Source: a virus
Reading direction: 5' to 3' (one strand)
IMG/VR virus record: IMGVR_UViG_3300045988_079665
DNA length: 64,000 nucleotides
Shown here: positions 3,281 to 31,788 of the stretch, piece by piece
Numbering within the stretch: position 1 is the first letter of the stretch
How the letters are laid out: each line of letters opens with the position of its first letter
The notes under the pieces: model-generated
What the model was told of the DNA's origin: nothing
Databases searched by the model: none
Seen by the model: the letters and a program-made list of their open reading frames with translations, nothing else
Translations under genes and position numbers: made by a program

Positions 3281-3373
3281 TGGTACTGGCGCTCGGACTC
3301 GAACCGAGATTTTGCGGCAATCGACCGCTAAACTGTGTATAGGACAGCTGGCTTACCATTAACCGACACCAGC
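3281..3373 (-). tRNA. 93-nt class-II (long variable arm) tRNA with anticodon loop CCUAUAC (UAU), CCA encoded
   Basis: Acceptor GCTGGTG/CGCCAGT, D-arm GGTT-AATGGTA-AGCC, T-arm CTCGG-TTCGAGT-CCGAG, 23-nt variable region with GCGG/CCGC stem. Confidence 0.6.
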
Positions 3374-10917: not shown

Positions 10918-11466
10918 TTATTCCGCAAAAAGATTTTTAATTTCTTCCAGGTCTTTTTCCGGTATGTTGGAAATGACCCACCCGTGACCGTATTTATAGG
11001 GCTTTCCGTCCGCTTTACGTGTTCCGATCAAATCAGCAGTTAACGGCACTTCATACAGTCCGCAATTTTTTAGCATTTCACAAACTTTTTTATAGTCATA
11101 TTCATTCCCTTTAACTTTCCACTCCGCAACAGCTTTTTCTTGTTCTGGCGTCCCAGCGTGCATGCCGTTCAAATGATATTTTTTCCAAAAAGTATAAATT
11201 TTTTGGAAAAGAGGCGTTTTAATATATTTTGCAATGTCATCAAGATTTTGACCGCCGGAACAAATATCAGAATGGCGAGAGTTCCAGATGCTCCCACTCG
11301 CAGAAAATTCAATATATTTATTATTATATTTTTCGGTAAAATTGCCAGCCTTATCAAATACTTTTTCTCCGCCTTTTTCTTCCAGACAAATAGTCACGTC
11401 AACGGCGCAATCTTTCCGGCCTCTGTTCATATAATCGATTTTACCAAAATTAAAAGTTTTTTCCAT
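10918..11466 (-). CDS. hypothetical protein (182 aa)
   Basis: ORF track; AGGAGGAA RBS. Confidence 0.8.
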   Translation of the reverse strand: MEKTFNFGKIDYMNRGRKDCAVDVTICLEEKGGEKVFDKAGNFTEKYNNKYIEFSASGSIWNSRHSDICSGGQNLDDIAKYIKTPLFQKIYTFWKKYHLNGMHAGTPEQEKAVAEWKVKGNEYDYKKVCEMLKNCGLYEVPLTADLIGTRKADGKPYKYGHGWVISNIPEKDLEEIKNLFAE

Positions 11467-11620
11467 TTTTTGTTCCTCCTGAATTTTTTGTTTGGTTGTT
11501 TATCGTGCCTTAAGTATAACCGATATTTTTTTATAATGTCAATCGGCATGTTGTACAAATTTTAATTGGTTTCTTTGTTTATTTTTTTATAGTTTGGCGG
11601 GATTGCTCCCGCCTTGCTAG

Positions 11621-17825: not shown

Positions 17826-18986
17826 TTATTCATCCTCCTCATTTTCATCACAATTTTCATCTACAAAATGGACATCTACATTGAAAATTTCTTTCAGAAC
17901 ATCAATAGCTTCTTTTGGCTCGATGCGGAAAAATTCTCTATCTGGGTTGACCCGCTCTTTGTCGAAATATTTATGGATATTATTTTCCAGCTCAAAGCAA
18001 TCATCACTGAATACAAAACAATGAGCATGATATGGTTCTGGCAAGCTGCTTGAGCTAAGTTCACGCACTCTTAATGCAGGATTCAATCTTCTAGTGCAAC
18101 CGAGCTTTACCAATCCGGGCAAGCTTGGTGAACTAATTACATATAGCCAACCAGCTTTGCTATGTGATTCACGATAAGCAATAGAATCGAGCCGCTTGTC
18201 AATACTAGCTAATTGAGATTTAATTCTATTACGCTCATCGTCTGTTAGCGCTTTATCAAACGCAATATTCATTGCTTTCTTTTCTTCAAGCAATTTAGCG
18301 CGTTCTCTAGCAATATCAGCAAGCAACTGTTCCTGTTCTTTTAATCTGCGCTTTTCTTCACGGATTCGCGCCTTTTCTTCTTTCTGTTTAACCTTAATTG
18401 CTAAGTTGATATATAGCATATCAAGCCGCGCCTTTACATATTCAGCATTGAGCGCCAATCCGACTTTATTTGCCTTAGACTGATAAGAATTAAATTTATT
18501 CTTAATCAATTCTTTGCTCTTAGCAATATTGCTTGTTGTTATGGATTTTTCTTTGTTGTCAATATATTCTGACATAGCATAGCACAATCCGCGCCCATAT
18601 ACATCCTGCATTTCTTTACCGCGCCTAGCAGAATCATTGAGGGTATATCCTTGCTCAATGCGATATAGACCAGTATTTACGGCAGATTCAATTTTGCTTT
18701 GTAGCTCATAGCGTTTATGCTCAAGTTCATCTAGTGAATCTTGATAATATGGGATATTATAATCCTGCATTTCTTCAATGGTATGGATTTTGCCATTTAG
18801 AGCATTAAGGACGGATTGAGCTTCTTTTGCGGCGATTTCGGCACTTTCTGCTGATTTACGGCTTTTTTCTTCTTTTGTTTCAAGAGAATCAATTTCCTTA
18901 TACAACTCTTGAATCTTAAAGTCTAGTAAATCGATATAATGCTCAAGTTCTTTCTTCTTCTTGTTCATCTTGAAAATCTCGAACAC
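17826..18986 (-). CDS. DUF4041-like coiled-coil + T5orf172/MUG113 (GIY-YIG superfamily) domain protein
   Basis: C-terminus GWLYVISSPSLPGLVKLGCTRRLNPALRVRELSSSSLPEPY...EFFRI; long Lys/Glu coiled-coil N-part. Confidence 0.75.
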   Translation of the reverse strand: MFEIFKMNKKKKELEHYIDLLDFKIQELYKEIDSLETKEEKSRKSAESAEIAAKEAQSVLNALNGKIHTIEEMQDYNIPYYQDSLDELEHKRYELQSKIESAVNTGLYRIEQGYTLNDSARRGKEMQDVYGRGLCYAMSEYIDNKEKSITTSNIAKSKELIKNKFNSYQSKANKVGLALNAEYVKARLDMLYINLAIKVKQKEEKARIREEKRRLKEQEQLLADIARERAKLLEEKKAMNIAFDKALTDDERNRIKSQLASIDKRLDSIAYRESHSKAGWLYVISSPSLPGLVKLGCTRRLNPALRVRELSSSSLPEPYHAHCFVFSDDCFELENNIHKYFDKERVNPDREFFRIEPKEAIDVLKEIFNVDVHFVDENCDENEEDE

Positions 18987-19387: not shown

Positions 19388-19416
19388 TTGACAAAGTGAT
19401 GAATATATGGTATAAT
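19388..19416 (+). promoter_or_regulatory. consensus sigma-A promoter
   Basis: TTGACA-aagtgatgaatatatgg-TATAAT. Confidence 0.8.
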
Positions 19417-19509: not shown

Positions 19510-20088
19510 ATGGAAAATAATAACGTTGTATATAAGCACACTAACTTAGAAAATGGATTGGTCTATTATGGGATTGCTGAAAATTATGTAACAAGATGGA
19601 ATGACGGCTTTGGATACCAAACAAATCAGAGATTTTGGAAAGATATAGTAAAATATGGATGGAAAAATTTTAAGCATGAGATACTTGTGGAAAATCTAAC
19701 TCGCGATGAGGCAAAATTTTATGAAGGTATGCTAATTCAAGAAACAGGCTCGTATCTTCCTGAGAACGGATATAATCAAAGTCTTGGCGAACATATGAAT
19801 TATCAAGAAGTAACACCTGATGATATTAGAGATGACATTATTAGAACACAAAGACCAAGAACTGGGCGTGCAGGTACACCAGTTGTTTGCAATGGAAAGA
19901 CGTATTTGACGATTGCTGAATTGTCCGAAGAAATCAATGAAGATGCTGGTGTGCTTGCTCAGATGCTAAGTCCTGCTTGCACAAGAAAAATGTCTAAAAT
20001 TTATGAAGATATGGGGCTTAGATATGCTACAGAAGATGAAATTCTTGCCTGTGTGAATGAGCGAATGGAAAGAGATATCTTGGGTTGA
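19510..20088 (+). CDS. free-standing GIY-YIG homing-endonuclease-like protein (192 aa)
   Basis: VVYKHTN..GLVYYGIA...R...KYGWKNFKHEIL...EAKFYEGMLI...ENGYN. Confidence 0.7.
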   Translation: MENNNVVYKHTNLENGLVYYGIAENYVTRWNDGFGYQTNQRFWKDIVKYGWKNFKHEILVENLTRDEAKFYEGMLIQETGSYLPENGYNQSLGEHMNYQEVTPDDIRDDIIRTQRPRTGRAGTPVVCNGKTYLTIAELSEEINEDAGVLAQMLSPACTRKMSKIYEDMGLRYATEDEILACVNERMERDILG

Positions 20089-20113
20089 CAAATAATCAAA
20101 TATATGATATAAT
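20085..20113 (+). promoter_or_regulatory. consensus sigma-A promoter
   Basis: TTGACA-aataatcaaatatatga-TATAAT; -35 contains TGA stop of the GIY-YIG gene. Confidence 0.75.
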
Positions 20114-20142: not shown

Positions 20143-20286
20143 TTGTGGAGCGAGATGAGCTATAACTGGTATGTATCGGAAGATACAGAGCCAGAAGTAT
20201 GGGATGATGAATATGAACCAACTGAGCGCGATTGGGTGCTTTGGATATATGGTAGTTCAGAGAATGAATTAGAGGTGATTTATTAA
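20143..20286 (+). CDS. acidic small protein (47 aa, TTG start), tentative
   Basis: AAGGAGGTGG RBS; below cutoff; stop abuts the RNAP start. Confidence 0.4.
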   Translation: MWSEMSYNWYVSEDTEPEVWDDEYEPTERDWVLWIYGSSENELEVIY

Positions 20287-22875
20287 GTGCCATTAACAGA
20301 GTTCTGTTATATACCTTCTGTGGCAACGGATGCTTTTTATACGCCAGAGGAACAAGTAATACATAATCGACTTGTCAAGCTATATGCCTTGAGAATGCGC
20401 GAGAAGAATGGTCAGAATCGAAAATGGCGTGTTTCATCAATTAACCGTGTTATCAAGAAGCATAAAGATGAACTTGTTGAGTTGCTGAGAAAATCGCTTG
20501 AAGACAACATTACAAGAGAACTTAATCCAGATGCGGTAACAGATAAGACAATTATTAACCTGTTTTGTTCTGAGTTGACTCGTAGCCTTGGCATTAAGAC
20601 ATTTGAGCGAAGTGACAAAATTATTATTGTCAATGTTTTCTTTTTCGAGGTATTAAACAGCATCATTCATAATGGATTCAATTACAATGGGGAGCATTAT
20701 ATTTTCTATTCATGTGGCGCTGGCATGATACGTACAAAGCGATTTATGGCTGTTCGTGAAAAAGATTATTTGGCGGTTGAACAAACCCTCATGTGTGGAC
20801 TGACCATTGAATCAATCAATGCGCTGGGTGGCATGAATGAAAATAAACTATTGAGCTATAAGAGCCTTATGGCATCTGCAACAGATAGAATTACAGACTT
20901 TGACATAGACCGTTGCATTATAGTTGATGATTTCGAAATGCCAGTTATGGCTGAATCAGATTTCATTGATTATACGGATTATAGCATTACGCGTAAAACA
21001 TCAGAGACAATTATAGCTGAAACTGACGGTTGGGGAATGTGTTGCAAGCCCGGATTTAAGACACAGATTGTTCGTGCGCCTTGGATAAAAGGACTAGTGT
21101 CATACTTTGATTTTAGGGCATGGTTAAAGGAATATTGTCCTGCCGACGATTGGACTGTAACTGATATATACGGAAGAGAATGGAATATTATTGTGGATGA
21201 CATTCAGTATATATTAACTAAATCAATGTTTAAGTTGTATAAATTTTATCCATCTTGGCTTTGCTACAAGACTAATTTTAAGAGTTATGGTTGTTATTTT
21301 GGATGCTGTAAAGTTGAGGAAGATTATATACCAAAGGCGCGAATCAATTATCAGATGCTTCAATCTCTAAGTGATATGACGGATAATGAGATTGAGCGGC
21401 TTATTGCCAAGACAGCAGATGAAATTAATAGTGTCGGGAGAGATTATCAAACTACCATGAGACTATTAGGCGCGACTGAATACAATCAAACAAAATCAGC
21501 CATGCAAGAAGCGTTGACAATATATCCAGAATTATTTAAAGATGCGTATAACCGGGAGTTGTTGAAACAGACAAAGAAAAGTTTGGTAAAACAAGCAAAA
21601 GGTGGCAGATTGAGAATTAACGGCAAATACCTGTTTATTTCGCCTGACCCTGTGGCATTTTGTGAGTGGTTGTTCAAAGGTGAGCAATTCCCAACTGGTA
21701 TACTTGAGAATGGAGAGGTTTATACTAATCAATTCAAAGATGGTGACGAGCTTGATTGTTTGAGAAGCCCACACTTGTATCAGGAACACGCGGTTAGAAT
21801 CAACAAGCGAAATGGGCTGACCGATAAATGGCTTGGCGGAACAAAATGCATATATTTCAGTGCACACGATATGATTAGTCGTATATTACAACAGGACTTT
21901 GATGGGGATATTTCCTTGGTTGTGAAGGATAAGACGTTGACAACTGTGGCAAAGCGCAATATGCAAGGAATTGTACCGTTATCGTATGACCTCAAAAAAG
22001 CACGTGGCGGTATTATTGATGCGGATAGACTGTATGAAGGTGTAAGTACTGCATATACAGGTGGGTCGATTGGCCCGATTAGTAATGCAATCAGTAAGGT
22101 AAAAAATGCTAATGGTGGTAAAATGACTGAGGAGCAAATTAGAGTAATTGCTTGGCTTACAATGAAGAACAATCAAATTATTGATTTTGCGAAAACGTTA
22201 TGGAAAAGTGAGCCACCAAAAGAAATTGCAGATATTATAAAAAAATATACAAAGTCAAAATTGCCTCATTTTTTTATCTATGCCAAAGACAAAGACCCAG
22301 ATACTCAAGTTGAGTTGCCAAATAATTCCACGATGAATCGTATATCAGCCAAAATCCCTACTTCTCGAATTCGATATAATAACAAGATTGGGAAATTCGA
22401 TTGGACGATGTTGATAAATAAATCAGTCGATTATACTACTAGAGAAAATTCACCAATCATTGAGCGGTATAATTGGTGGATGTGGAATCAGCGCCGATTT
22501 GATTATGGCGATGACCCGCATATCAATGAGGACGATTTATATAAATATCGTCGCATAGCACAAGATATTGTGGAATATAGCAACGAGCCACTAGATGTTG
22601 TGGCAAATAGCCTAGTTGCTTATCTATATACAGTTAAAAAATCAAGCAATAAGAAAATGCTGTGGGCTTGTTTCGGTTGGACGATTGTAGAGAATTTGAG
22701 AACCAATACGGCGCAACTTAATCCAATCTGTCCCATTTGCGGCAAGCGCTTCAAGCCGCGAGATGTATGTCAGCATTATTGCTCAGAGGAATGTTATAAG
22801 AAAGCAGATAATCAGAGGCGTACTGAATCGCGCGAAGCCCCACCTGTCCGCACGGGGGACATGTTAAAACAGTAG
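20287..22875 (+). CDS. YonO-like single-subunit two-barrel RNA polymerase (RdRP-like), 862 aa
   Basis: RSPHL (R493) then QQDFDGD (D537-D541, nt 21895-21909), the DxDGD Mg-binding signature; C-terminal CPICG...C..C zinc ribbon; HU-like genes adjacent. Confidence 0.6.
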   Translation: MPLTEFCYIPSVATDAFYTPEEQVIHNRLVKLYALRMREKNGQNRKWRVSSINRVIKKHKDELVELLRKSLEDNITRELNPDAVTDKTIINLFCSELTRSLGIKTFERSDKIIIVNVFFFEVLNSIIHNGFNYNGEHYIFYSCGAGMIRTKRFMAVREKDYLAVEQTLMCGLTIESINALGGMNENKLLSYKSLMASATDRITDFDIDRCIIVDDFEMPVMAESDFIDYTDYSITRKTSETIIAETDGWGMCCKPGFKTQIVRAPWIKGLVSYFDFRAWLKEYCPADDWTVTDIYGREWNIIVDDIQYILTKSMFKLYKFYPSWLCYKTNFKSYGCYFGCCKVEEDYIPKARINYQMLQSLSDMTDNEIERLIAKTADEINSVGRDYQTTMRLLGATEYNQTKSAMQEALTIYPELFKDAYNRELLKQTKKSLVKQAKGGRLRINGKYLFISPDPVAFCEWLFKGEQFPTGILENGEVYTNQFKDGDELDCLRSPHLYQEHAVRINKRNGLTDKWLGGTKCIYFSAHDMISRILQQDFDGDISLVVKDKTLTTVAKRNMQGIVPLSYDLKKARGGIIDADRLYEGVSTAYTGGSIGPISNAISKVKNANGGKMTEEQIRVIAWLTMKNNQIIDFAKTLWKSEPPKEIADIIKKYTKSKLPHFFIYAKDKDPDTQVELPNNSTMNRISAKIPTSRIRYNNKIGKFDWTMLINKSVDYTTRENSPIIERYNWWMWNQRRFDYGDDPHINEDDLYKYRRIAQDIVEYSNEPLDVVANSLVAYLYTVKKSSNKKMLWACFGWTIVENLRTNTAQLNPICPICGKRFKPRDVCQHYCSEECYKKADNQRRTESREAPPVRTGDMLKQ

Positions 22876-22963
22876 GAAATATATGGATAAAATTAACTCA
22901 CCACAATATGTTGTGGTAGACTAATAGGGAGACATATCTTTGAAATGAAGGGTGGTGAATGTG

Positions 22964-24055
22964 ATGGCATACATGGCTTATAAATTTAGGATGTATCCCA
23001 ATACTGAACAGGAAAATCTTATAATAAAGACATTTGGTTGTGTTCGGTTTATTTATAATAAGATGCTTGAAGATAAAATAAAGTTTTATGAATGTACAAA
23101 GAAAAGATTAAATAATACTCCCGCACAATATAAAAAAGAATATCTTTGGTTAAGAGAAGTTGACGCTTTTGCTTTGTGCAACGCACAAATTCATTTGCAA
23201 GCAGCATATAATAATTTTTTTAAGAATCCAAAGAGCGGGTTTCCTAAATTTAAGAGTAAGAAAACGGGCAAGAATAGTTATACAACAAATAACCATTCGG
23301 AAAATATAAGGATTGTAGATAAAACTATTAAACTTCCGAAACTTGGAATGGTTAAAATAAAGCAACACAGAGAAATCAAGCAAAATCAAAAAATTAAGTC
23401 TGTTACCATCACAAGAAAACCATCTGGGAAATACTTTGTATCAATTTTAGTTGAATATAATATTGTTGAAAAGTCGGTAAAATTAAATAAGGAAAAATCG
23501 ATTGGACTTGATTATTCAAGTCATAGCTTTTACGTCGATAGCCAATGTGTAGAAGCAGATTATCCACGATTTTATCGAGCGTCTCAAGATCATTTGTCCA
23601 AAGAGCAAAGGAAGTTGGCTACAATGAAGAAAGGTAGCAACAATTATTATAAGCAAAAAGTAAAAATTGCTACTATTCAAGAAAAAATAGCAAACCAAAG
23701 AAAAGATTGGATGCACAAATTAAGTACAGAATTATCAAATAAGTACGATTATATTTGCGTTGAAGATATAAATTTACAACAAATGTCACAGCATTTAAAT
23801 CTTGGGAAATCTACATATGACAATGGATTTGGTATGTTTAGAGATATGCTTTTTTATAAATTAAAGCAAAGAGGGAAAAAGTTCATCAAGATTGATAAAT
23901 GGTATCCATCTAGTAAAATGTGTAGATATTGTGGCACGATAAATTCTAATTTAACTCTAAGCCAAAGAGTATGGACATGTGAATGTGGAAAAGTGCTTAA
24001 TAGGGATGAAAATGCAGCGATTAACATATTGAACGCTGGATTAAGTATGATATAA
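22964..24055 (+). CDS. tnpB: TnpB (OrfB) RNA-guided nuclease family protein
   Basis: AYKFRMYPN N-terminus; RuvC D (IGLDYS), E (CVEDINLQ), D (NRDENAAINI); zinc finger CRYCG...CECG. Confidence 0.85.
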   Translation: MAYMAYKFRMYPNTEQENLIIKTFGCVRFIYNKMLEDKIKFYECTKKRLNNTPAQYKKEYLWLREVDAFALCNAQIHLQAAYNNFFKNPKSGFPKFKSKKTGKNSYTTNNHSENIRIVDKTIKLPKLGMVKIKQHREIKQNQKIKSVTITRKPSGKYFVSILVEYNIVEKSVKLNKEKSIGLDYSSHSFYVDSQCVEADYPRFYRASQDHLSKEQRKLATMKKGSNNYYKQKVKIATIQEKIANQRKDWMHKLSTELSNKYDYICVEDINLQQMSQHLNLGKSTYDNGFGMFRDMLFYKLKQRGKKFIKIDKWYPSSKMCRYCGTINSNLTLSQRVWTCECGKVLNRDENAAINILNAGLSMI

Positions 24056-24169: not shown

Positions 24170-24589
24170 TTGCATAAAAATAAATATCCTCGGCTAGGCA
24201 AAGCCGATATGAGCAAAGAGCTACGACGGCGCACAGGCGTTGATTCTAAAATCATTGAGCTAGTGTTAAGAAACTATCATGACATTATTCGTGAGACACT
24301 ACAACATGGCGTGGAATATTCTTTGCCAGATATTGGTGTTATTACATTCCGCGACCACCCACCAAAGCCAGCTGGCGAATATTGGAACGGATTCCAAAAG
24401 CGGCGTATGTACTATCCTGACAGAATGGGATATTATCGACTAGAGTTTAAGGCTGAGAAACATATGGCTAGTTATGTAAAAGCTGGTACATTGTATGGTA
24501 AAGGCCCGACAAAAGAAGAATGGGATGCTTGGGTATTAGAGAATTATCCTAATAATCCTAAGTTTGCTAAGGAAGAAGAAGATGGCTGA
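24170..24589 (+). CDS. divergent HU/IHF-fold DNA-binding protein (139 aa)
   Basis: MSKELRRRTGVDSKIIELVL...LPDIGVITFRDHPPKPAG...RLEFKA follows HU topology. Confidence 0.55.
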   Translation: MHKNKYPRLGKADMSKELRRRTGVDSKIIELVLRNYHDIIRETLQHGVEYSLPDIGVITFRDHPPKPAGEYWNGFQKRRMYYPDRMGYYRLEFKAEKHMASYVKAGTLYGKGPTKEEWDAWVLENYPNNPKFAKEEEDG

Positions 24590-25145
24590 ATATAATAAGC
24601 TGAATCAAGAATTTTATGCTTATGCTGGTGGATTGCTCAATGTATCGCCACAGACTGCCAAGAAATATTGGATGGGGTTTGTTGATACTATCATCCATAT
24701 TCTTCATTTTGATGGCAAATGCCAAATGCCAAGTGTAGGCACATTTACACTAGAAGAATTGCCTGAGCGTAGAGTAATGGCTAAGAATGAGCAGGGTGAA
24801 CTTGTTGAGCAAATTAACCCTGCTTGGTTTAAGATATTATACAAATATAATGAGGATTTTCTTAATAACGTAAATGGACGCGGCGTTACAAAGAAATATC
24901 GTAGGCGTGTTCGTGAACGTAAGTTGACACCAAATGATCTCAAGCTGATAACTCAAGCTGAAATGGAACGAACGGCAAAGCGAACATTAGAGCAAATGCA
25001 AAATGAGCGCATTGAGAAAGCAAAGCAACAGAGCTATGATGATTTTATCAATGTCATCAATCAGAAAAAAGAAGATTATGAACGGAAAAAGAAGGAAAAG
25101 GAACAGAAATTGAATGAATCTAATGAAGATACGACAAGCGACTGA
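24582..25145 (+). CDS. divergent HU/IHF-fold DNA-binding protein with Lys/Glu-rich tail
   Basis: ...MPSVGTFTLEELPERRVMAKNEQGELVEQINPAWFKILYKYN...; ATG 24582 overlaps the upstream stop. Confidence 0.55.
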   Translation: MAEYNKLNQEFYAYAGGLLNVSPQTAKKYWMGFVDTIIHILHFDGKCQMPSVGTFTLEELPERRVMAKNEQGELVEQINPAWFKILYKYNEDFLNNVNGRGVTKKYRRRVRERKLTPNDLKLITQAEMERTAKRTLEQMQNERIEKAKQQSYDDFINVINQKKEDYERKKKEKEQKLNESNEDTTSD

Positions 25146-26298
25146 GCTGCTAGATAGCAAATTGATTGACTTGCAAGAATGGACGGCTCGTTGTCTTGGT
25201 GAGGATTATAGGGGCGTCTGGTCAGAGGAATATTTACGTCGATGTGCTGTGTTTGTTCGCAATATGCTAAATGGCGCAGACGATTGTGAGTCAGACGAAA
25301 AAGACGCTGAGATTTTAGCCCAGCTTAAAGAAGCAAAAATTGAGTTAGAGAAAGAACGCAAGAAATTACAGAGCGAGAATATTCAGTATGTTCAAAATCA
25401 GAGACTTGACGCAAGAGCAGACTTGATTCAAGAAAAGATTGCTGAGTCGATTAAGAACCTTGAGCCGTTTACTATTCGTGAGTTTAACATTCTGCCGCAA
25501 ATGAATGTAAGTGGACTTCTTTGTATTTCTGACCTTCATGCTGGCTCGACCTATGAAATCAAGGGTGCATATAATGAAATTGTAAACAAGTACAATTTTG
25601 ATATTATGAGGGCGCGGCTTGATGGGTTGCTTAACAAGATGTGTAATGATGACAACTGCATCTGGATTGATGATATTACGGTTGCTGTGCTCGGTGACTG
25701 CGTAGAGAATATTTTACGTACATCTAGTTTAACTAAGCTAAGAGAGCCAGTTATTGATACGGTTATCAAGTTGTCTGAATATCTGGCTGATTGGTTTGTT
25801 GAGTTACATGACCGGCTTGAAATTCCTGTTAATGTGGTGATGGTTGGTGGTAACCATGATGTATGCCGCCCGTTGACATCTAAGCCACAGTTTGAGGAAG
25901 AAAATCTAGGTAAAATCATTGTATGGTATCTACAAGAGCGGTTAAAGTCAGTAGATGGAATTACAGTTGATGATTACACAGATTGTGCTATTAAATACAT
26001 TAAGAACAATGCAATCATGCTTCATCATGGGGATGGCGGCGATGTAACTGAGACAATGCGATATTTTGAAAATTTATATAATATTGACATTGATGAATGC
26101 TACGTTGGGCATCTACACCGACAAGAAATGAAGAATGCTGGTATTACTGAGTTAGGTGATAAACTGTGTTGGCGCGTTGGCTCGGTATGCGGTGTTGATG
26201 GATTTGCCAAGTCTATTCGTAAAGCATCAAGACCATCTTGTATGTTTACTACATATTCAGAAGATGGTGCAGAATGGCGTAAAACATTTTATCTTTAA
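25114..26298 (+). CDS. calcineurin-like metallophosphoesterase (SbcD/Mre11-like) with coiled-coil N-terminus
   Basis: ISDLHAGS, GDCVEN, GGNHD, HHGDGG, GHLH motifs in order. Confidence 0.75.
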   Translation: MNLMKIRQATELLDSKLIDLQEWTARCLGEDYRGVWSEEYLRRCAVFVRNMLNGADDCESDEKDAEILAQLKEAKIELEKERKKLQSENIQYVQNQRLDARADLIQEKIAESIKNLEPFTIREFNILPQMNVSGLLCISDLHAGSTYEIKGAYNEIVNKYNFDIMRARLDGLLNKMCNDDNCIWIDDITVAVLGDCVENILRTSSLTKLREPVIDTVIKLSEYLADWFVELHDRLEIPVNVVMVGGNHDVCRPLTSKPQFEEENLGKIIVWYLQERLKSVDGITVDDYTDCAIKYIKNNAIMLHHGDGGDVTETMRYFENLYNIDIDECYVGHLHRQEMKNAGITELGDKLCWRVGSVCGVDGFAKSIRKASRPSCMFTTYSEDGAEWRKTFYL

Positions 26299-26300
26299 TA

Positions 26301-26329
26301 TTGACAATCAATAGATTATGTGATATAAT
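26301..26329 (+). promoter_or_regulatory. consensus sigma-A promoter
   Basis: TTGACA-atcaatagattatgtga-TATAAT. Confidence 0.8.
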
Positions 26330-26335
26330 ACAACT

Positions 26336-27266
26336 ATGGAATTGCGGCTAATATCTGCGGAGTTAGCCTTGGCTTGGGGATGCGTCCTACAAGTCTCATA
26401 ATAGAGGAAAAGTCTGAACTCTTTTCGCCGTCACAAGACGGAATTTAGAACAATCGGTAGCGTCAGTTGCAAATGGCGCTACCAACTTAAATTGATTCAT
26501 TCTCTGCTAGGTGATAGCTATTTTAGCTGTGTTAATCATGCTTGTGGGGCGATTGACCCACCTAGTAGAGTTGGATATCTTCGCCGTGAATCTGCAATTC
26601 AGCAGAGCCTGATACGAGCGTGTCATATACTGTGGCGAGATATGACAATTTATCTCGTGTACCATGCGTACATGGAGTTTTCAGGGTCGTTTATGGCGGC
26701 TCTTGCAAAATCCTATCCTTGACGATAGGCGTATAGCAACAGGTGTGTTATACGAGCGTATGAAGCATAGAACCGGGTTGTCTTTCGGCAATATGTGGAC
26801 GTTAATCGAAGGTTTGCGGTATACCATATGGCAACAATGAAAACCGCATCGCCATTAGAACGATGCAAAGGCGAGATGTGATGGCATCTAATACCCATTG
26901 CACCATAATACCGAGCGACACGGTAAATATGTCGCACTTGTAAAATGATAAAACATAACAATGAGTGGCGCTCGATACCGGCATGCGCTTGATAAATACC
27001 GGACATTGATGAGTCCCTAGGCAAGGACAATAAACTACCTGTCGCTACTACTCATTGGCGGCTATGAATATCCGAAAGGAGGTCACTATTCTCTTGAATT
27101 ATCCACTGGTTTATCCGAAGCATAATTAAAGAAAGGATGGTGGTCAGAGCCAATCGGCTCATATCTACAATAAGCCCAACTCAATGGGAACTGTTGTTTA
27201 ACTGAATATTGAACCTTGACAAATACAAAGCAGCTGAGAGCAATCTTGGCTGCTTTGTCATATTTA
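26336..27266 (+). ncRNA. ~0.93 kb promoter-driven ORF-free structured RNA (candidate large ncRNA or late-operon leader)
   Basis: No credible ORF or RBS; >=10 local helices plus long-range AATGAGT/ACTCATT; higher GC; terminal hairpin. Confidence 0.5.
27226..27266 (+). terminator. hairpin CAAAGCAGC/GCTGCTTTG with T-rich tail
   Basis: 9-bp stem, 14-nt loop, then TCATATTTAT. Confidence 0.5.
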
Positions 27267-27300
27267 TAGGAAAGTAAACGGAACAGAAAGGAATGAGAAT

Positions 27301-28125
27301 ATGTTTTGCCCATATTGCGGCAAGGAAAAGCAAGACAGCCAATTCTATAAAAGCCCAATCAAAACGGGCGAATATATTAAGCCATGCAAATCATGCGTAA
27401 CTGAGATATATAAACAAGCTCTTGAATCTACTAAAGACCAAGGCGCGGCATTATGGTCAACTTGTATGCAGACTGGCATTCCCATGAGACGTGCTGAATA
27501 TACGGCTTGTCTTGATACGCTAGAAAAGGCGGCTAAAGGTAAAAAGCCTAGTCTATTTATGTTGTATCATACATACTTATCAACATCTCCTGATAAATTA
27601 ACAGGCGTATGGGATAGCGATATGGAGTTGTCTAATTTCAAGGATTTGGGCGATGTAGCTAAGGGTGAAACAGATGAAGTTGCGCTTAAAGCAAGATGGC
27701 GCAAACAATGGGGCGGTGACTATGAAGATGAGGACTGTCAATGGCTAGATGATATGTTCGATAGCTATACGGCAGATATATTTGAAATGGATACCGCTAT
27801 GGAAATGCGTTATCGTGATCTGTGTAAGCTAGAACTTGAACAGTATAAAAATGGTGTTAATAAAGACACTCAAGCACAGATCAAAACGTTAATGTCACTA
27901 CTTAAACTTGATGATTTTAAGAGTAATCAGAAGTCGGACGCGGAACGAGCATTTGAGAAACGTATAGCTTGGGTGGAATATACTAAACCATCTGAATGTG
28001 AAGATTTGACAAGATTCGTAGATATGGTTGGATATGAAAAGGACAAGGGTGAAAAGATGCGTAGCTTGCGCAACGCTGTTGCTGGCACTAGAGATTATCC
28101 AGCAATCCCGAAGGAGGAAGCATAA
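27301..28125 (+). CDS. putative terminase small subunit (position-based), N-terminal zinc ribbon
   Basis: Immediately upstream of and overlapping terL; CPYCG...C..C. Confidence 0.35.
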   Translation: MFCPYCGKEKQDSQFYKSPIKTGEYIKPCKSCVTEIYKQALESTKDQGAALWSTCMQTGIPMRRAEYTACLDTLEKAAKGKKPSLFMLYHTYLSTSPDKLTGVWDSDMELSNFKDLGDVAKGETDEVALKARWRKQWGGDYEDEDCQWLDDMFDSYTADIFEMDTAMEMRYRDLCKLELEQYKNGVNKDTQAQIKTLMSLLKLDDFKSNQKSDAERAFEKRIAWVEYTKPSECEDLTRFVDMVGYEKDKGEKMRSLRNAVAGTRDYPAIPKEEA

Positions 28126-29969
28126 TGCGCTCTAGGATGGGCGGTCTTAGAGAATCATTTAAGGCTGATAAACTTCGCGCCGTATCTGGCATATCTAAAA
28201 AAATAGATAGTGCCTTAGAAGATAACATCATAGAGTGGACAACTCTATTCAGACGAAATTGGGATATATTTGCTGAATTTTATCTAGGGATTCCATTAAA
28301 ACCATATCAGCGTCAGGCATTACATGAAATTGGTGTATCAGATGTGTACTTTTGGAGAGCAGGACGTGGCGGCGCAAAATCGTTTATTACTATGCTTGCG
28401 GCGGTCTGCAAGCTACTATTGTATCCAAACTGTCAGATAGTTATTACATCCTCTACTGTTGACCAAGCTAATAAGATGGTCAAAGAAAAGCTAGAGAAAG
28501 AATTGATAAAAAAGTTATCTCAACTACTTTTGCTTTATTATGAAAAAGACTGGATAAAAATAACAAAGCCGAACGATGGATATTATGTAGAGTGTACACT
28601 TAACAATTCGTCCATTACTGTTCTTGCCCCTGTTGAATCAGCTAGAGGTTCGCGTTCTAACTTTACCATATATGATGAGGTTGCCATTATGAAGAAAACG
28701 GCAATAGACCAAATCTTTGATGGGATGTTGTTTCCAAGGCAACCAAATTATTTAAGCAATCCTGCATATTCTGGAAACAAGAGATGGATAGAAGAATCTA
28801 AGAGTATATATCTAACATCATCTAAGTTCAAGTTCCAGTGGTGGTATAGATTGTGGTGCGATTGTGTAACAGGATATTATGTTGATAAGCGTACTAAATA
28901 TGGCATATTCGCAACTGACTTTTTTGATAATATAGAAAATGGCTTAAAAACATGGGGTGATTATCGTAGAGCTAAAAGGCAGAACGACGATATATCATTT
29001 AGGACAGAATACTTAAATGAAGCGATTGGCGAGTCAGAGGATTCTTTCTTTAGTCTTGAATCATTTAAGGAAAATCAAGTTATTACAGATGCGTTTTGCC
29101 CACCAAAACCGATGGATTTATTGGTTGCTAGTGAATTAGAAGATGACGAGAAAAAAGACGATGAAGTGCGCCTCATTGTATCTGACTTTGCTTGGACAAC
29201 AACTGGCAAAAAAGCAAACGAATCGGATAATAGCATTGCTATATGTATAAGAGCAAAGTGGAAAAAAGACCATTTTGATAAATATGTAGAATATATTGAA
29301 CTGCTACCAACGGCAGATGACGCAGATGGTTGTGCTGATAGGTTAAAAGAATTGTTTTGGTTGTATCAAGCAGACTATTTAGTGCCTGATGCTAGATCGG
29401 GTGGCGAAGCGGTTATGATAGCTTTATCTAAACCATATACCAATGAACGTTATTCGGCGTTCATCAATAATCATGGCCTAACTATGGCTGATAAAAAAGA
29501 ATATCATGTGGCTCGACCCGATAAGCTAGATTACTATAGAGCCAATGCAGTAGACCCAAATGCTTATCCTTGTATCATACCTATTGTTGGTAGTGAAACG
29601 CTCAATACGTCTTATTGGAAAGCAACTAAAATGTCACTTGAGAATAATCGTATAAAATTCTTGATAGGGATGAGCGATAAGCAAGATGTTATTGTTGAAA
29701 CTGGCGAATATTACAAATACACCGGCGAACAGATAGCAGATATACTTGCGCCTCATGGCAATACTGATTTGCTTATATCGGAGGCAGTTAATTTAACCAC
29801 CATATTCAAAGGCGAAAACATTAAACTGGAAGCGCCGAGAACAGGGCATCGTGACCGTATTGTTACATTAGCTATGGGTATTTTAATATGTGATTATATT
29901 GAAAATGAATGGAATAGACAGAATCATGCTGAAGAATATGATTTAGATGACATTCAATTAGTATATTGA
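28125..29969 (+). CDS. terL: terminase large subunit
   Basis: Walker A-like GRGGAKS, Walker B IYDEVA, C-terminal nuclease-like acidic motifs. Confidence 0.85.
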   Translation: MRSRMGGLRESFKADKLRAVSGISKKIDSALEDNIIEWTTLFRRNWDIFAEFYLGIPLKPYQRQALHEIGVSDVYFWRAGRGGAKSFITMLAAVCKLLLYPNCQIVITSSTVDQANKMVKEKLEKELIKKLSQLLLLYYEKDWIKITKPNDGYYVECTLNNSSITVLAPVESARGSRSNFTIYDEVAIMKKTAIDQIFDGMLFPRQPNYLSNPAYSGNKRWIEESKSIYLTSSKFKFQWWYRLWCDCVTGYYVDKRTKYGIFATDFFDNIENGLKTWGDYRRAKRQNDDISFRTEYLNEAIGESEDSFFSLESFKENQVITDAFCPPKPMDLLVASELEDDEKKDDEVRLIVSDFAWTTTGKKANESDNSIAICIRAKWKKDHFDKYVEYIELLPTADDADGCADRLKELFWLYQADYLVPDARSGGEAVMIALSKPYTNERYSAFINNHGLTMADKKEYHVARPDKLDYYRANAVDPNAYPCIIPIVGSETLNTSYWKATKMSLENNRIKFLIGMSDKQDVIVETGEYYKYTGEQIADILAPHGNTDLLISEAVNLTTIFKGENIKLEAPRTGHRDRIVTLAMGILICDYIENEWNRQNHAEEYDLDDIQLVY

Positions 29970-30213
29970 TATTTGCCTATGAAGCGGCTACTATGTTGGT
30001 GTGTGGCTGTGGAGGTGCTATTAGGGTTGTGTGGTGAATATACTCCAAGTTCCAACTTAGGCTTAATTGAAAGCTGAAAATAAAAACACTCAAAAATATC
30101 AAACGAGCGGATAGGGAGGACAAGTAGCTCAATGAACTTTGGCATACGTTAATGAAGTCCATAATCTAACCGCTCTAATATATAAACAATAAAACAAAGA
30201 AAGGAGGTTGAAG

Positions 30214-31788
30214 ATGCCAAAAAATAATGAAGATGTAAAGCTATCTAAAAATGACCTTCAAGACATTATTGATTTTAGTGCTGGCTTGATGGCGGTTGAT
30301 AATTTTTATTCACCATTTTTGAGCAATCAGCTATTGACCAATCTAAACAATAATCCACGCTTACCTAATGCAGAGGCGGTAAAAAAGGCGCTCAATGACT
30401 ACAAGAATAGTGGCGCTGATTTACAGGGGTTTGTAGAATTTGCATCAGCGTTTGATATGATTTTCAAGCGTACTTTATATTCTTATGCAAATGTGCTATC
30501 TTTCGACCTTCAGATAACCTGCAAAAACGCATATACAAAAGGCGACTATGAATCAGAGGAATATAAGAAAGACCGGCAAACAGTAGATAATTTCTTGACT
30601 AATTTTGACTACAAGAAAGAATTTTATAATGTTCTGCTAAACGTCCTAAAGCGTGACTCATATTTTACTTGGTTCAGAAAGACTAAGAGCGGCAATCGCG
30701 GCAAGATGAAGTATGCTCTACAAATTATGCCACAAGATTATTGTATGCTTACTGGATACTTTGAAAAAGGGTTGCTGTGGTCTTTTAATGTACTGTATTT
30801 TATGCAACCGGGCGTAGATATTGAGGGGTTTGACCCAAGTCTTAAAAAGACATATCTTGATGCGATTGAAAATGCGGAGCTAAATTATAAGCCGTCTGCA
30901 CCACTCGATAAACGTAATGGTAGTTATGCACTATGGGCAGATGTATCACCGCTTAATGGTGCTTATGCTTGGAAATTTTCCACAGACAACTTTGCTAACA
31001 ATCCATTCTTAGCACCATATGTAGCCAATGTTCTACGCAGTGATGAGGTTGGTGAGTTGCAATATAACAAAGACCTTATCTCTGCGGCTGGTATTTTAGC
31101 TGGTGAAATTAGACTATTTGATTCAGCCAAGTCAGGCACGAAGGCGAATCAATTTGCTATTGACCCGAAAACGCTTGGAGCATTTATGCAAAAGGCGGCT
31201 AATGGACTCAAGAATATTGCTAAACTGGCCGCTATGCCACTTGAGAATATCAAGTTTTTCCAATTTGAGGACAAGAACCCAAATAGCTATACAAATGAAC
31301 TAACTACAACAGCTGGTATTGGTACTGGTATTAGCCGTGTTATCTATTCATCTGATAAGATGAGCAATGCTGAGCTAGAGGCGGCGCTTAATGAGGTATA
31401 TCAGACTATGAAGCCAATGTATGCTCAGTTCAATAATTTCCTTGATTTCTATGTCAATCAAATGACTAGCAAATATAAGTTTAAGTTTGAGTTTGTTGGC
31501 TCTAACTATCAATTTGAGCGTGATGCCAGATTTGATAAGATGATGAAAATGGCTGATAAGGGACTTGTGCTCAATTCGTCCGCATGGGCTAGTGCTATTG
31601 GCATGAATCCTATTACATTCGATAGGATGCTTGCTGAGAGCAAATATACTGGATGGATTGACAAGTATTCAACGCTTATGTTAAATGCAAATACCACAGC
31701 GCAATCAAATGAAGGTGGCCGCCCCCGTCAGTCAGGAACATCACTTACTGAAAGCGGAGAGGCAAGCCGAGAAACATTAGAGGAATGA
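30214..31788 (+). CDS. portal protein (position- and size-based)
   Basis: 524 aa directly after terL; AAAGGAGGT RBS. Confidence 0.6.
   Translation: MPKNNEDVKLSKNDLQDIIDFSAGLMAVDNFYSPFLSNQLLTNLNNNPRLPNAEAVKKALNDYKNSGADLQGFVEFASAFDMIFKRTLYSYANVLSFDLQITCKNAYTKGDYESEEYKKDRQTVDNFLTNFDYKKEFYNVLLNVLKRDSYFTWFRKTKSGNRGKMKYALQIMPQDYCMLTGYFEKGLLWSFNVLYFMQPGVDIEGFDPSLKKTYLDAIENAELNYKPSAPLDKRNGSYALWADVSPLNGAYAWKFSTDNFANNPFLAPYVANVLRSDEVGELQYNKDLISAAGILAGEIRLFDSAKSGTKANQFAIDPKTLGAFMQKAANGLKNIAKLAAMPLENIKFFQFEDKNPNSYTNELTTTAGIGTGISRVIYSSDKMSNAELEAALNEVYQTMKPMYAQFNNFLDFYVNQMTSKYKFKFEFVGSNYQFERDARFDKMMKMADKGLVLNSSAWASAIGMNPITFDRMLAESKYTGWIDKYSTLMLNANTTAQSNEGGRPRQSGTSLTESGEASRETLEE

Follow-up and report, generated by a model that had tools for sequence, protein, structure and literature searches.

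A stretch of virus DNA of 64,000 nucleotides (IMG/VR virus record IMGVR_UViG_3300045988_079665; the whole stretch is here called the window) contains an uninterrupted open reading frame (ORF) of 862 amino acids at 20287..22875 (+), and the locus raises the question of which kind of polymerase this ORF encodes and which genes that polymerase reads. The initial annotation of the window had described the product as a YonO-like single-polypeptide two-barrel RNA polymerase (RNAP) with a DFDGD motif at 21895-21909; the ORF and motif coordinates proved exact to the base, and full-length homology to YonO, the aligned catalytic motifs and the predicted fold agree with the assignment. We consider the protein a probable orthologue of YonO of phage SPβ that copies a DNA template and transcribes the late genes of the phage, a reading to which, taken as a whole, we give a probability of about 0.85. 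Descriptions of the YonO family go back to 2003-2017; among minimal single-chain relatives of the cellular RNA polymerases, YonO is to our knowledge the only one that has been characterised. The kind of enzyme is already known and the locus adds little on what the enzyme is; judged by its sequence, the window RNAP is a further family member, in an uncultured SPβ-like gut phage.

The window polymerase among two-barrel enzymes

The ORF starts with GTG, preceded by GAGGTGA, and the same start was chosen by independent gene callers on twelve metagenomic contigs that encode an identical protein. The window RNAP and SPβ YonO (Forrest et al. 2017, PMC5467207) are collinear over their full lengths of 862 and 839 amino acids; BLASTP aligned them from residue 3 to the C-terminal Cys motif with 40% identity and 60% positives over 843 amino acids (reported E = 0), with RSPHLY of the window protein opposite RSPHLF and DFDGD opposite DNDGD of YonO. 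A tblastn search of annotated phages matched 40 records, SPβ yonO itself at E 5e-169; 27 of these align at ~39-40% identity over 96-99% of the query, namely 25 SPβ-like Bacillus phages, Clostridium phage D-1873 and Psychrobacillus phage Perkons. A 12 kb megablast against annotated phages found no near-identical annotated phage. Among protein clusters of phages, phrog_8308 ('unknown function') matched the entire protein with E 1e-225, and a second PHROG, annotated as an RNA-dependent RNA polymerase (RdRP), matched weakly, in the motif region. The family is large, with 2,095 matches at E <= 1e-5 among 90%-identity clusters, some of which hold several hundred member sequences, and 1,218 clusters at 50% identity (E <= 1e-3). 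Within a large clade of uncultured phages from the human gut, the YonO-type RNAP is common.

The ORF carries the motif strings CLRSPHLYQEH (ELDCLRSPHLYQEH) and ILQQDFDGDISLV. The barrel-A (beta-prime-like) motifs lie at 21763..21909 (+) and consist of R493-x-P495-H-L at nt 21763-21777 and D537-F-D539-G-D541 at nt 21895-21909. The R-x-P-x-L segment had been said to have the same spacing as in eukaryotic-type RdRPs and YonO, and this holds: the distance from R493 to D537 is 44 residues, compared with about 43 in YonO and 45 in QDE-1 (R962 to D1007; PMC2919709). Candidate barrel-B (beta-like) residues lie at 21025..21090 (+), with D247 at 21025-21027, R263 at 21073-21075 and K268 at 21088-21090. 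Conservation was examined in an alignment of 40 family members with 39-96% identity to the window protein, bona fide YonO included. D247, R263, P265, K268, R493, P495, H496, L497, D537, D539, G540 and D541 are invariant in 40/40, as are four C-terminal cysteines. Eight residues are common to all two-barrel polymerases, in QDE-1 D709, R738, K743, R962, P964, D1007, D1009 and D1011 (Ruprich-Robert and Thuriaux, PMC2919709). In the alignment the five residues of barrel A (R493, P495, D537, D539 and D541) map unambiguously to this universal set; D247, R263 and K268 are candidates for the three residues of barrel B, as suggested by their invariance and by an R-x4-K spacing equal to that of R738/K743 in QDE-1.

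The four cysteines form the motif C815-x2-C818...C832-x3-C836 at 22729..22794 (+). Their invariance supports a predicted zinc-binding motif, and zinc-ribbon-containing proteins gave weak sequence matches to the C-terminus of the RNAP. The C-terminal zinc ribbon that had been proposed would fit the conserved Cys4 set, with the ribbon fold itself a prediction.

An AlphaFold2 model was built from the 40-member alignment, with a mean predicted local distance difference test score (pLDDT) of 89.4 and a predicted template modelling score (pTM) of 0.85. The initial annotation had suggested structure comparison as a check on the double-psi barrels. A Foldseek search of the model against the PDB placed two-barrel enzymes at the top: the first 21 matches are all RDR2 (7W82/7RQS) or QDE-1 (2J7N/7Y7x), with E 1.8e-20 to 1.7e-13, probability 1.00, template modelling scores of about 0.45-0.56 and about 800-950 aligned columns. 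The next matches are sub-significant and local, ~78 amino acids at a root-mean-square deviation of ~3 Å, to Rpb1/beta-prime. Compared with predicted viral structures, the model is most similar to phage proteins that bear the name RdRP. Sequence searches found no YonO structure in the PDB. At the level of fold matches, the model has the predicted fold of two double-psi beta-barrels in one chain; a lack of such barrels, which the initial annotation had named as grounds for rejection, is not what the comparison showed.

The comparison with known enzymes shows both likeness and distance. QDE-1 and RDR2 are single-chain two-barrel enzymes, share the R-x4-K spacing and are the best fold matches, yet they are only 11-13% identical to the window protein, and they copy RNA in silencing, whereas YonO transcribes double-stranded DNA. 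Rpb1/Rpb2 share the (D/N)xDGD Mg loop, the RxP motif and the local ~78-aa matches to Rpb1; in contrast to their ~400 kDa five-subunit core, the window enzyme is one chain of ~100 kDa, and global matches are insignificant at E about 0.1. In YonO no trigger loop can be detected, and few of the other conserved domains can (PMC5467207). The crAss-like gp66 and the tape-measure-fused RNAP of P23-45 are likewise minimal two-barrel RNAPs of phages (10.1101/2022.12.01.518664). These are virion-delivered early enzymes and were not among the significant PDB matches; unlike them, the window RNAP has a host-type promoter upstream and is linked to late genes.

From these comparisons we propose that the window protein would act as a single-chain RNAP of ~100 kDa with an active site built of two double-psi beta-barrels. 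D537, D539 and D541 of barrel A would bind the catalytic Mg; the Asp triad is essential in YonO, where a 3D>3N mutant is inactive (PMC5467207). R493 and P495 would position the substrate, as the literature on the family indicates, and D247, R263 and K268 of barrel B would complete the active site.

Gene order, promoters and the probable late-gene role

The window comes from a tailed phage, with a leftward early arm up to ~19.3 kb and a rightward arm from 19.4 kb, where the GC (guanine-cytosine) skew flips. The order of the rightward arm is GIY-YIG endonuclease, small ORF, RNAP, TnpB, two HU-like genes, YonJ-like exonuclease and an ORF-free kilobase, beyond which follow a YonG-like gene, terminase, portal, tape measure and tail genes. 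The SPβ order is yonP-yonO-yonN(HU)-[gap]-yonK-yonJ-...-yonG-yonF-yonE. In both phages a small ORF and a host-type promoter precede the RNAP gene, HU-like gene(s), YonJ, YonG, terminase and portal follow it, and a long ORF-free leader stands before the late genes. The YonJ-like metallophosphoesterase/exonuclease gene lies at 25114..26298 (+; BLASTP to SPβ YonJ E 2e-25, a match to phrog_284, and YonJ_CC on an identical gene) and the leader of ~1 kb at 26330..27300 (+), ahead of the packaging genes. The presumed late operon begins with the YonG-like gene at 27301-28125 (+; YonG_N Pfam match on orthologues), followed by the large terminase at 28125-29969 (+) and the portal at 30208-31788 (+). Relatives from human-gut metagenomes (~88-100 kb) keep the gene order of the window, and their genes match the Pfam families YonJ_CC, YonG_N and YonD_N. 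The two systems differ in that the window represents an uncultured human-gut phage of ~90-100 kb and SPβ is a 134-kb Bacillus prophage, and in that the leader here comes after the YonJ gene, whereas in SPβ it comes before yonK-yonJ.

YonO is a processive, strictly DNA-dependent RNAP with a strong preference for DNA templates, and 37 late genes of SPβ, in one operon, need it (PMC5467207). By analogy, the 40% full-length identity and the synteny with SPβ lead us to infer a DNA template and a late-gene role for the window enzyme. Host sigmaA RNAP would read a small operon from a promoter at 20085-20113, producing the 47-aa acidic protein, the RNAP and the two HU-like proteins. Next, the rightward packaging and structural block past ~26.3 kb would be read by the phage RNAP as one long processive unit.

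Perfect TTGACA-N17-TATAAT sites occur 11 times in the window, against 0.05 expected, and all have the extended -10 TG. Eight point leftward, from 2.6 to 19.4 kb, at one perfect promoter every 1-2 kb of the early arm, and three point rightward, at 19388, 20085 and 26301. None was found in the late block of 38 kb (26.4-64 kb of the window). The rightward site at 20085..20113 (+; TTGACA-17-TGaTATAAT) is an extended -10 promoter of the sigma70/sigmaA type, 174 nt upstream of the RNAP start, with the second perfect promoter upstream of the gene at 19388-19416 (+); a promoter-to-RNAP spacing of 157-191 nt recurs in relatives of the clade. The last perfect promoter, at 26301..26329 (+), opens the ORF-free leader, and in relatives without TnpB a promoter of this kind lies ~2,204 nt after the RNAP stop. 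The positions of both the 20085-type and the 26301-type promoter are kept in relatives down to ~49% RNAP identity. SPβ, too, has the one near-consensus site that it contains just upstream of yonP-yonO. Since perfect host-type promoters stand everywhere but in the late block, mapping the start sites of the phage RNAP should be straightforward in metatranscriptomes or in a heterologous system. Separately, we noticed that seven of the leftward promoters in the set at 2589-26329 share a repeat family of ~43 nt that reaches past the hexamers. As early promoters go, the set is unusually close to the ideal, and its end at 26329 is abrupt.

The late region had been called terminator-studded, a description that the counts support weakly and in part. 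Between 26.3 and 46 kb, 11.1 ± 3.2 terminator-like sites would be expected and 27 were counted; most of the 27 are weak, and both strands carry them. Between 46 and 64 kb there is no excess (10 against 11.0 expected). Only three strong hairpins are present on the + strand, at 27225, 36367 and 62092.

The position of the leader is analogous to the yonN-yonK gap of SPβ, the site of the mapped YonO start. It holds a 59-nt element of two hairpins at 26650-26708 (+; CTC-A-TGTAC-loop-GTACA-AG-GAG, followed by a hairpin of 7 bp that shows compensatory changes), a drum-like RNA match at 26755-26851 (+; Rfam, 37.6 bits, below threshold) and a 15-bp hairpin at 27225-27258 (+). A drum RNA proper (Rfam RF02958, 45 bits, above threshold) lies in the gap between terminase and portal at 29974-30094 (+). 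The leader of SPβ (locus L001 of our set) carries a DUF3800-VIII RNA at an equivalent place, L001 12381-12446; drum and DUF3800-VIII are orphan structured-RNA motifs without known function (PMC5737381). The two-hairpin element is common to SPβ and to loci with unrelated flanks, with copies at L001 12257-12319, L090 16087-16145, L024 5062-5119 and L025 11879-11936. A covariance model built without SPβ recovers the copy in that phage with 45.7 bits (E 1.7e-13), and in helix 2 three pairs are changed on both sides, among only nine sequences. The element was present in only 20/86 of the sources searched and is not in Rfam. The leader as a whole is 80-95% identical among phages whose RNAPs are 56-67% identical. 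We rejected this conservation as a sign of selection; the flanking genes are equally conserved, so it reflects mosaic, closely related backbones. The 59-nt element is the only deep conservation signal left in the leader.

A perfect promoter, that at 26301, stands at the very point where the late block is entered, so host RNAP could contribute to, or even drive, late transcription. On such a reading the enzyme would still belong to the YonO family, host RNAP would read the late block from 26301, and the phage enzyme would have a narrower job, for example the making of a specific leader or non-coding RNA, priming or terminator readthrough. The extended -10 promoter at 26301-26329, fronting the leader and the packaging genes and kept in position in relatives, speaks for it, as do the structured-RNA signatures of the leader, namely the drum-like match, the two-hairpin element and the 15-bp hairpin. 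We nevertheless find this arrangement unlikely. The SPβ orthologue is needed for the 37 late genes, from a start in the equivalent gap (PMC5467207); apart from the promoter at 26301, no consensus promoter stands in the 38 kb of late genes, whereas in the early arm one occurs every 1-2 kb; and host RNAP could be halted short of the first late gene by the strong hairpin at 27225-27258. The 26301 promoter could serve either to make a leader RNA that ends at this hairpin or to let host RNAP enter the late genes.

The name RdRP, which databases give to relatives, would make the window protein an RNA-dependent enzyme. The best structural matches, RDR2 and QDE-1, are eukaryotic RdRPs, relatives match the Pfam family PF05183 'RdRP' (22/40 family members reach it singly; the RNAP of the window does not), and the proteins of the Perkons, PMBT24 and TR-TP1 phages are named RdRP in GenBank. 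These names come from the name of the Pfam family, not from experiments. YonO, the only characterised member of the family and 40% identical to the window protein, is a strict DNA-dependent RNAP (PMC5467207), and a tailed phage with double-stranded DNA offers no context of double-stranded RNA or RNA silencing. RNA-dependent activity as the main function is in our judgement very improbable. Loss of activity, with the fold kept in a mere relic or for a purely structural role, hardly deserves consideration, given that the catalytic residues are all invariant in 40 sequences, that the gene is intact in the window whereas in relatives its most conserved codons are the very target of homing elements, and that the family is large and conserved.

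Several results count against the YonO-orthologue, late-gene reading that we prefer. The RNAP alone gave no useful match in Pfam, NCBIfam or the PDB sequences, and a family profile gave no match among the PDB sequences. The homology shows up solely in PHROGs, in phage genomes, in the protein databases and in the predicted structure. The proposed barrel-B equivalences follow from motif spacing and invariance, not from residue-level superposition. An exact-peptide genome scan for the host returned no match and named no host; in a profile scan, the closest relatives lay on nothing but short contigs of metagenome-assembled genomes with inconsistent taxonomy. The host-type promoter at 26301 belongs here as well. 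Finally, the SPβ YonO start site was placed, from the published primer pair, at L001 ~11305-11500, and neither the window nor relatives gave a significant match to this P_YonO interval, so that no promoter could be assigned. A look-alike of the SPβ YonO promoter seen by eye at 26340-26370 was rejected, the interval search having given no significant match.

The HU-like genes as candidate cofactors

The initial annotation had stated that yonO sits beside the HU-like gene yonN and had placed two HU-like genes at 24170-25145. In SPβ yonN does follow yonO, and in Clostridium phage D-1873 hup comes after the RNAP gene. The link extends further: an HU-like ORF stands directly after the RNAP gene in 57 of the 75 viral loci with enough downstream sequence, which makes the linkage a conserved family feature and suggests functional coupling. 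The two genes of the window differ in how well they are recognised. HU-like gene 1, at 24170..24589 (+; 139 aa), passes PF00216 with 24.2 bits against a cutoff of 22.4, a marginal pass over profile positions 3-59 of 90, in the N-terminal half only; its best PDB sequence matches are to IHF-alpha at E about 0.5. HU-like gene 2, at 24564..25145 (+), is a 193-aa ORF, for which gene callers chose a start at 24582 and 187 aa, and has a basic/acidic C-terminal extension. It has no direct family match, and none to PF00216 even at E <= 10. Its orthologues (E 7e-23 and 2e-21) match PF00216 along almost the full profile, one with 27.3 bits, which exceeds the 22.4 cutoff, and one with 21.2 bits, which falls just short of it. 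The second gene is accordingly HU-like by transitive homology through its orthologues only.

Pairwise comparison of HU-like gene 1 with YonN, and of gene 2 with gene 1, found no similarity. The clade of the window has a divergent pair, whereas SPβ and its branch have one canonical HU; in four intermediate loci the canonical-HU profile still recognises both members of the pair.

The conserved linkage allows a tentative proposal, which we regard as rather unlikely: a YonO-type RNAP, being sigma-less, would rely on the adjacent HU-like proteins as architectural or promoter-specificity cofactors, with the two-hairpin element as a part of the same control. The divergent pair found here would possibly form a heterodimer, and the element may act as a signal for processing, for antitermination or for the hand-over from host to phage RNAP. 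If true, the proposal would give a two-barrel RNAP a minimal initiation system that is independent of sigma. The partners conserved near the RNAP and available for testing are the HU-like gene(s), the 47-aa acidic protein and the leader RNA element.

Other neighbours and inserts in related genes

The 47-aa protein, which is strongly acidic, is encoded by a small ORF at 20143..20286 (+) with a TTG start and the ribosome-binding site AAGGAGGTG; gene callers chose an ATG-started 43-aa version. Its TAA abuts the GTG of the RNAP gene (TAAGTG), so the two genes are probably translationally coupled. In SPβ this position belongs to yonP. The ORF is conserved within the clade and is 64% identical to its counterpart in locus L007; its product appears unrelated to YonP, with no similarity detected between the two proteins, and has no Pfam match. 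We regard the product as a candidate accessory factor.

Between the RNAP and the HU-like genes lies a TnpB / IS605-OrfB gene at 22952..24055 (+; Pfam OrfB_IS605 and Cas12f1-like_TNB), which has no counterpart at this place in SPβ. It comes without TnpA and is present on the listed metagenomic contigs with an identical RNAP. Relatives that are 95-97% identical lack it, and in these the first HU-like gene starts 73 nt after the RNAP stop; the gene is therefore a recent insertion, of a mobile element, and is not part of the transcription module.

We also noticed that in some relatives the RNAP gene is broken by out-of-frame inserts of ~1 kb at two recurrent sites. One site splits the DFDGD codons themselves, between residues 537 and 539 (loci L055, L058, L060 and L068), and the other is after residue 633 (L021, L039, L041, L060 and L011/Goe14). 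Three inserts were scanned, those of L060 at both sites and that of Goe14 after 633. In the L060 insert at 537/539 the ORF is HNH-like, its match narrowly missing the Pfam threshold, and both inserts after residue 633 have GIY-YIG endonuclease ORFs. L060 also gave a sub-threshold match to a group I intron, and an Rfam intron search of the split yonO of Goe14 gave no match. Identity to the window protein shifts sharply at the insert sites, as in L039, where it is 59% before residue 633 and 89% after it; such jumps suggest homing-associated exon exchange.

A free-standing GIY-YIG homing-endonuclease gene lies just upstream of the RNAP operon of the window, at 19510-20088 (+); its similarity to the intron-borne GIY-YIG of L060 is generic only. 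In the opposite direction, a gene with a T5orf172/SNIPE domain is found at 17826-18986 (-), and its position is kept in relatives. The early arm further carries tRNA genes at 1319-1393 and 3281-3373 (-), called as Met-CAT and as a 93-nt Ile-TAT.

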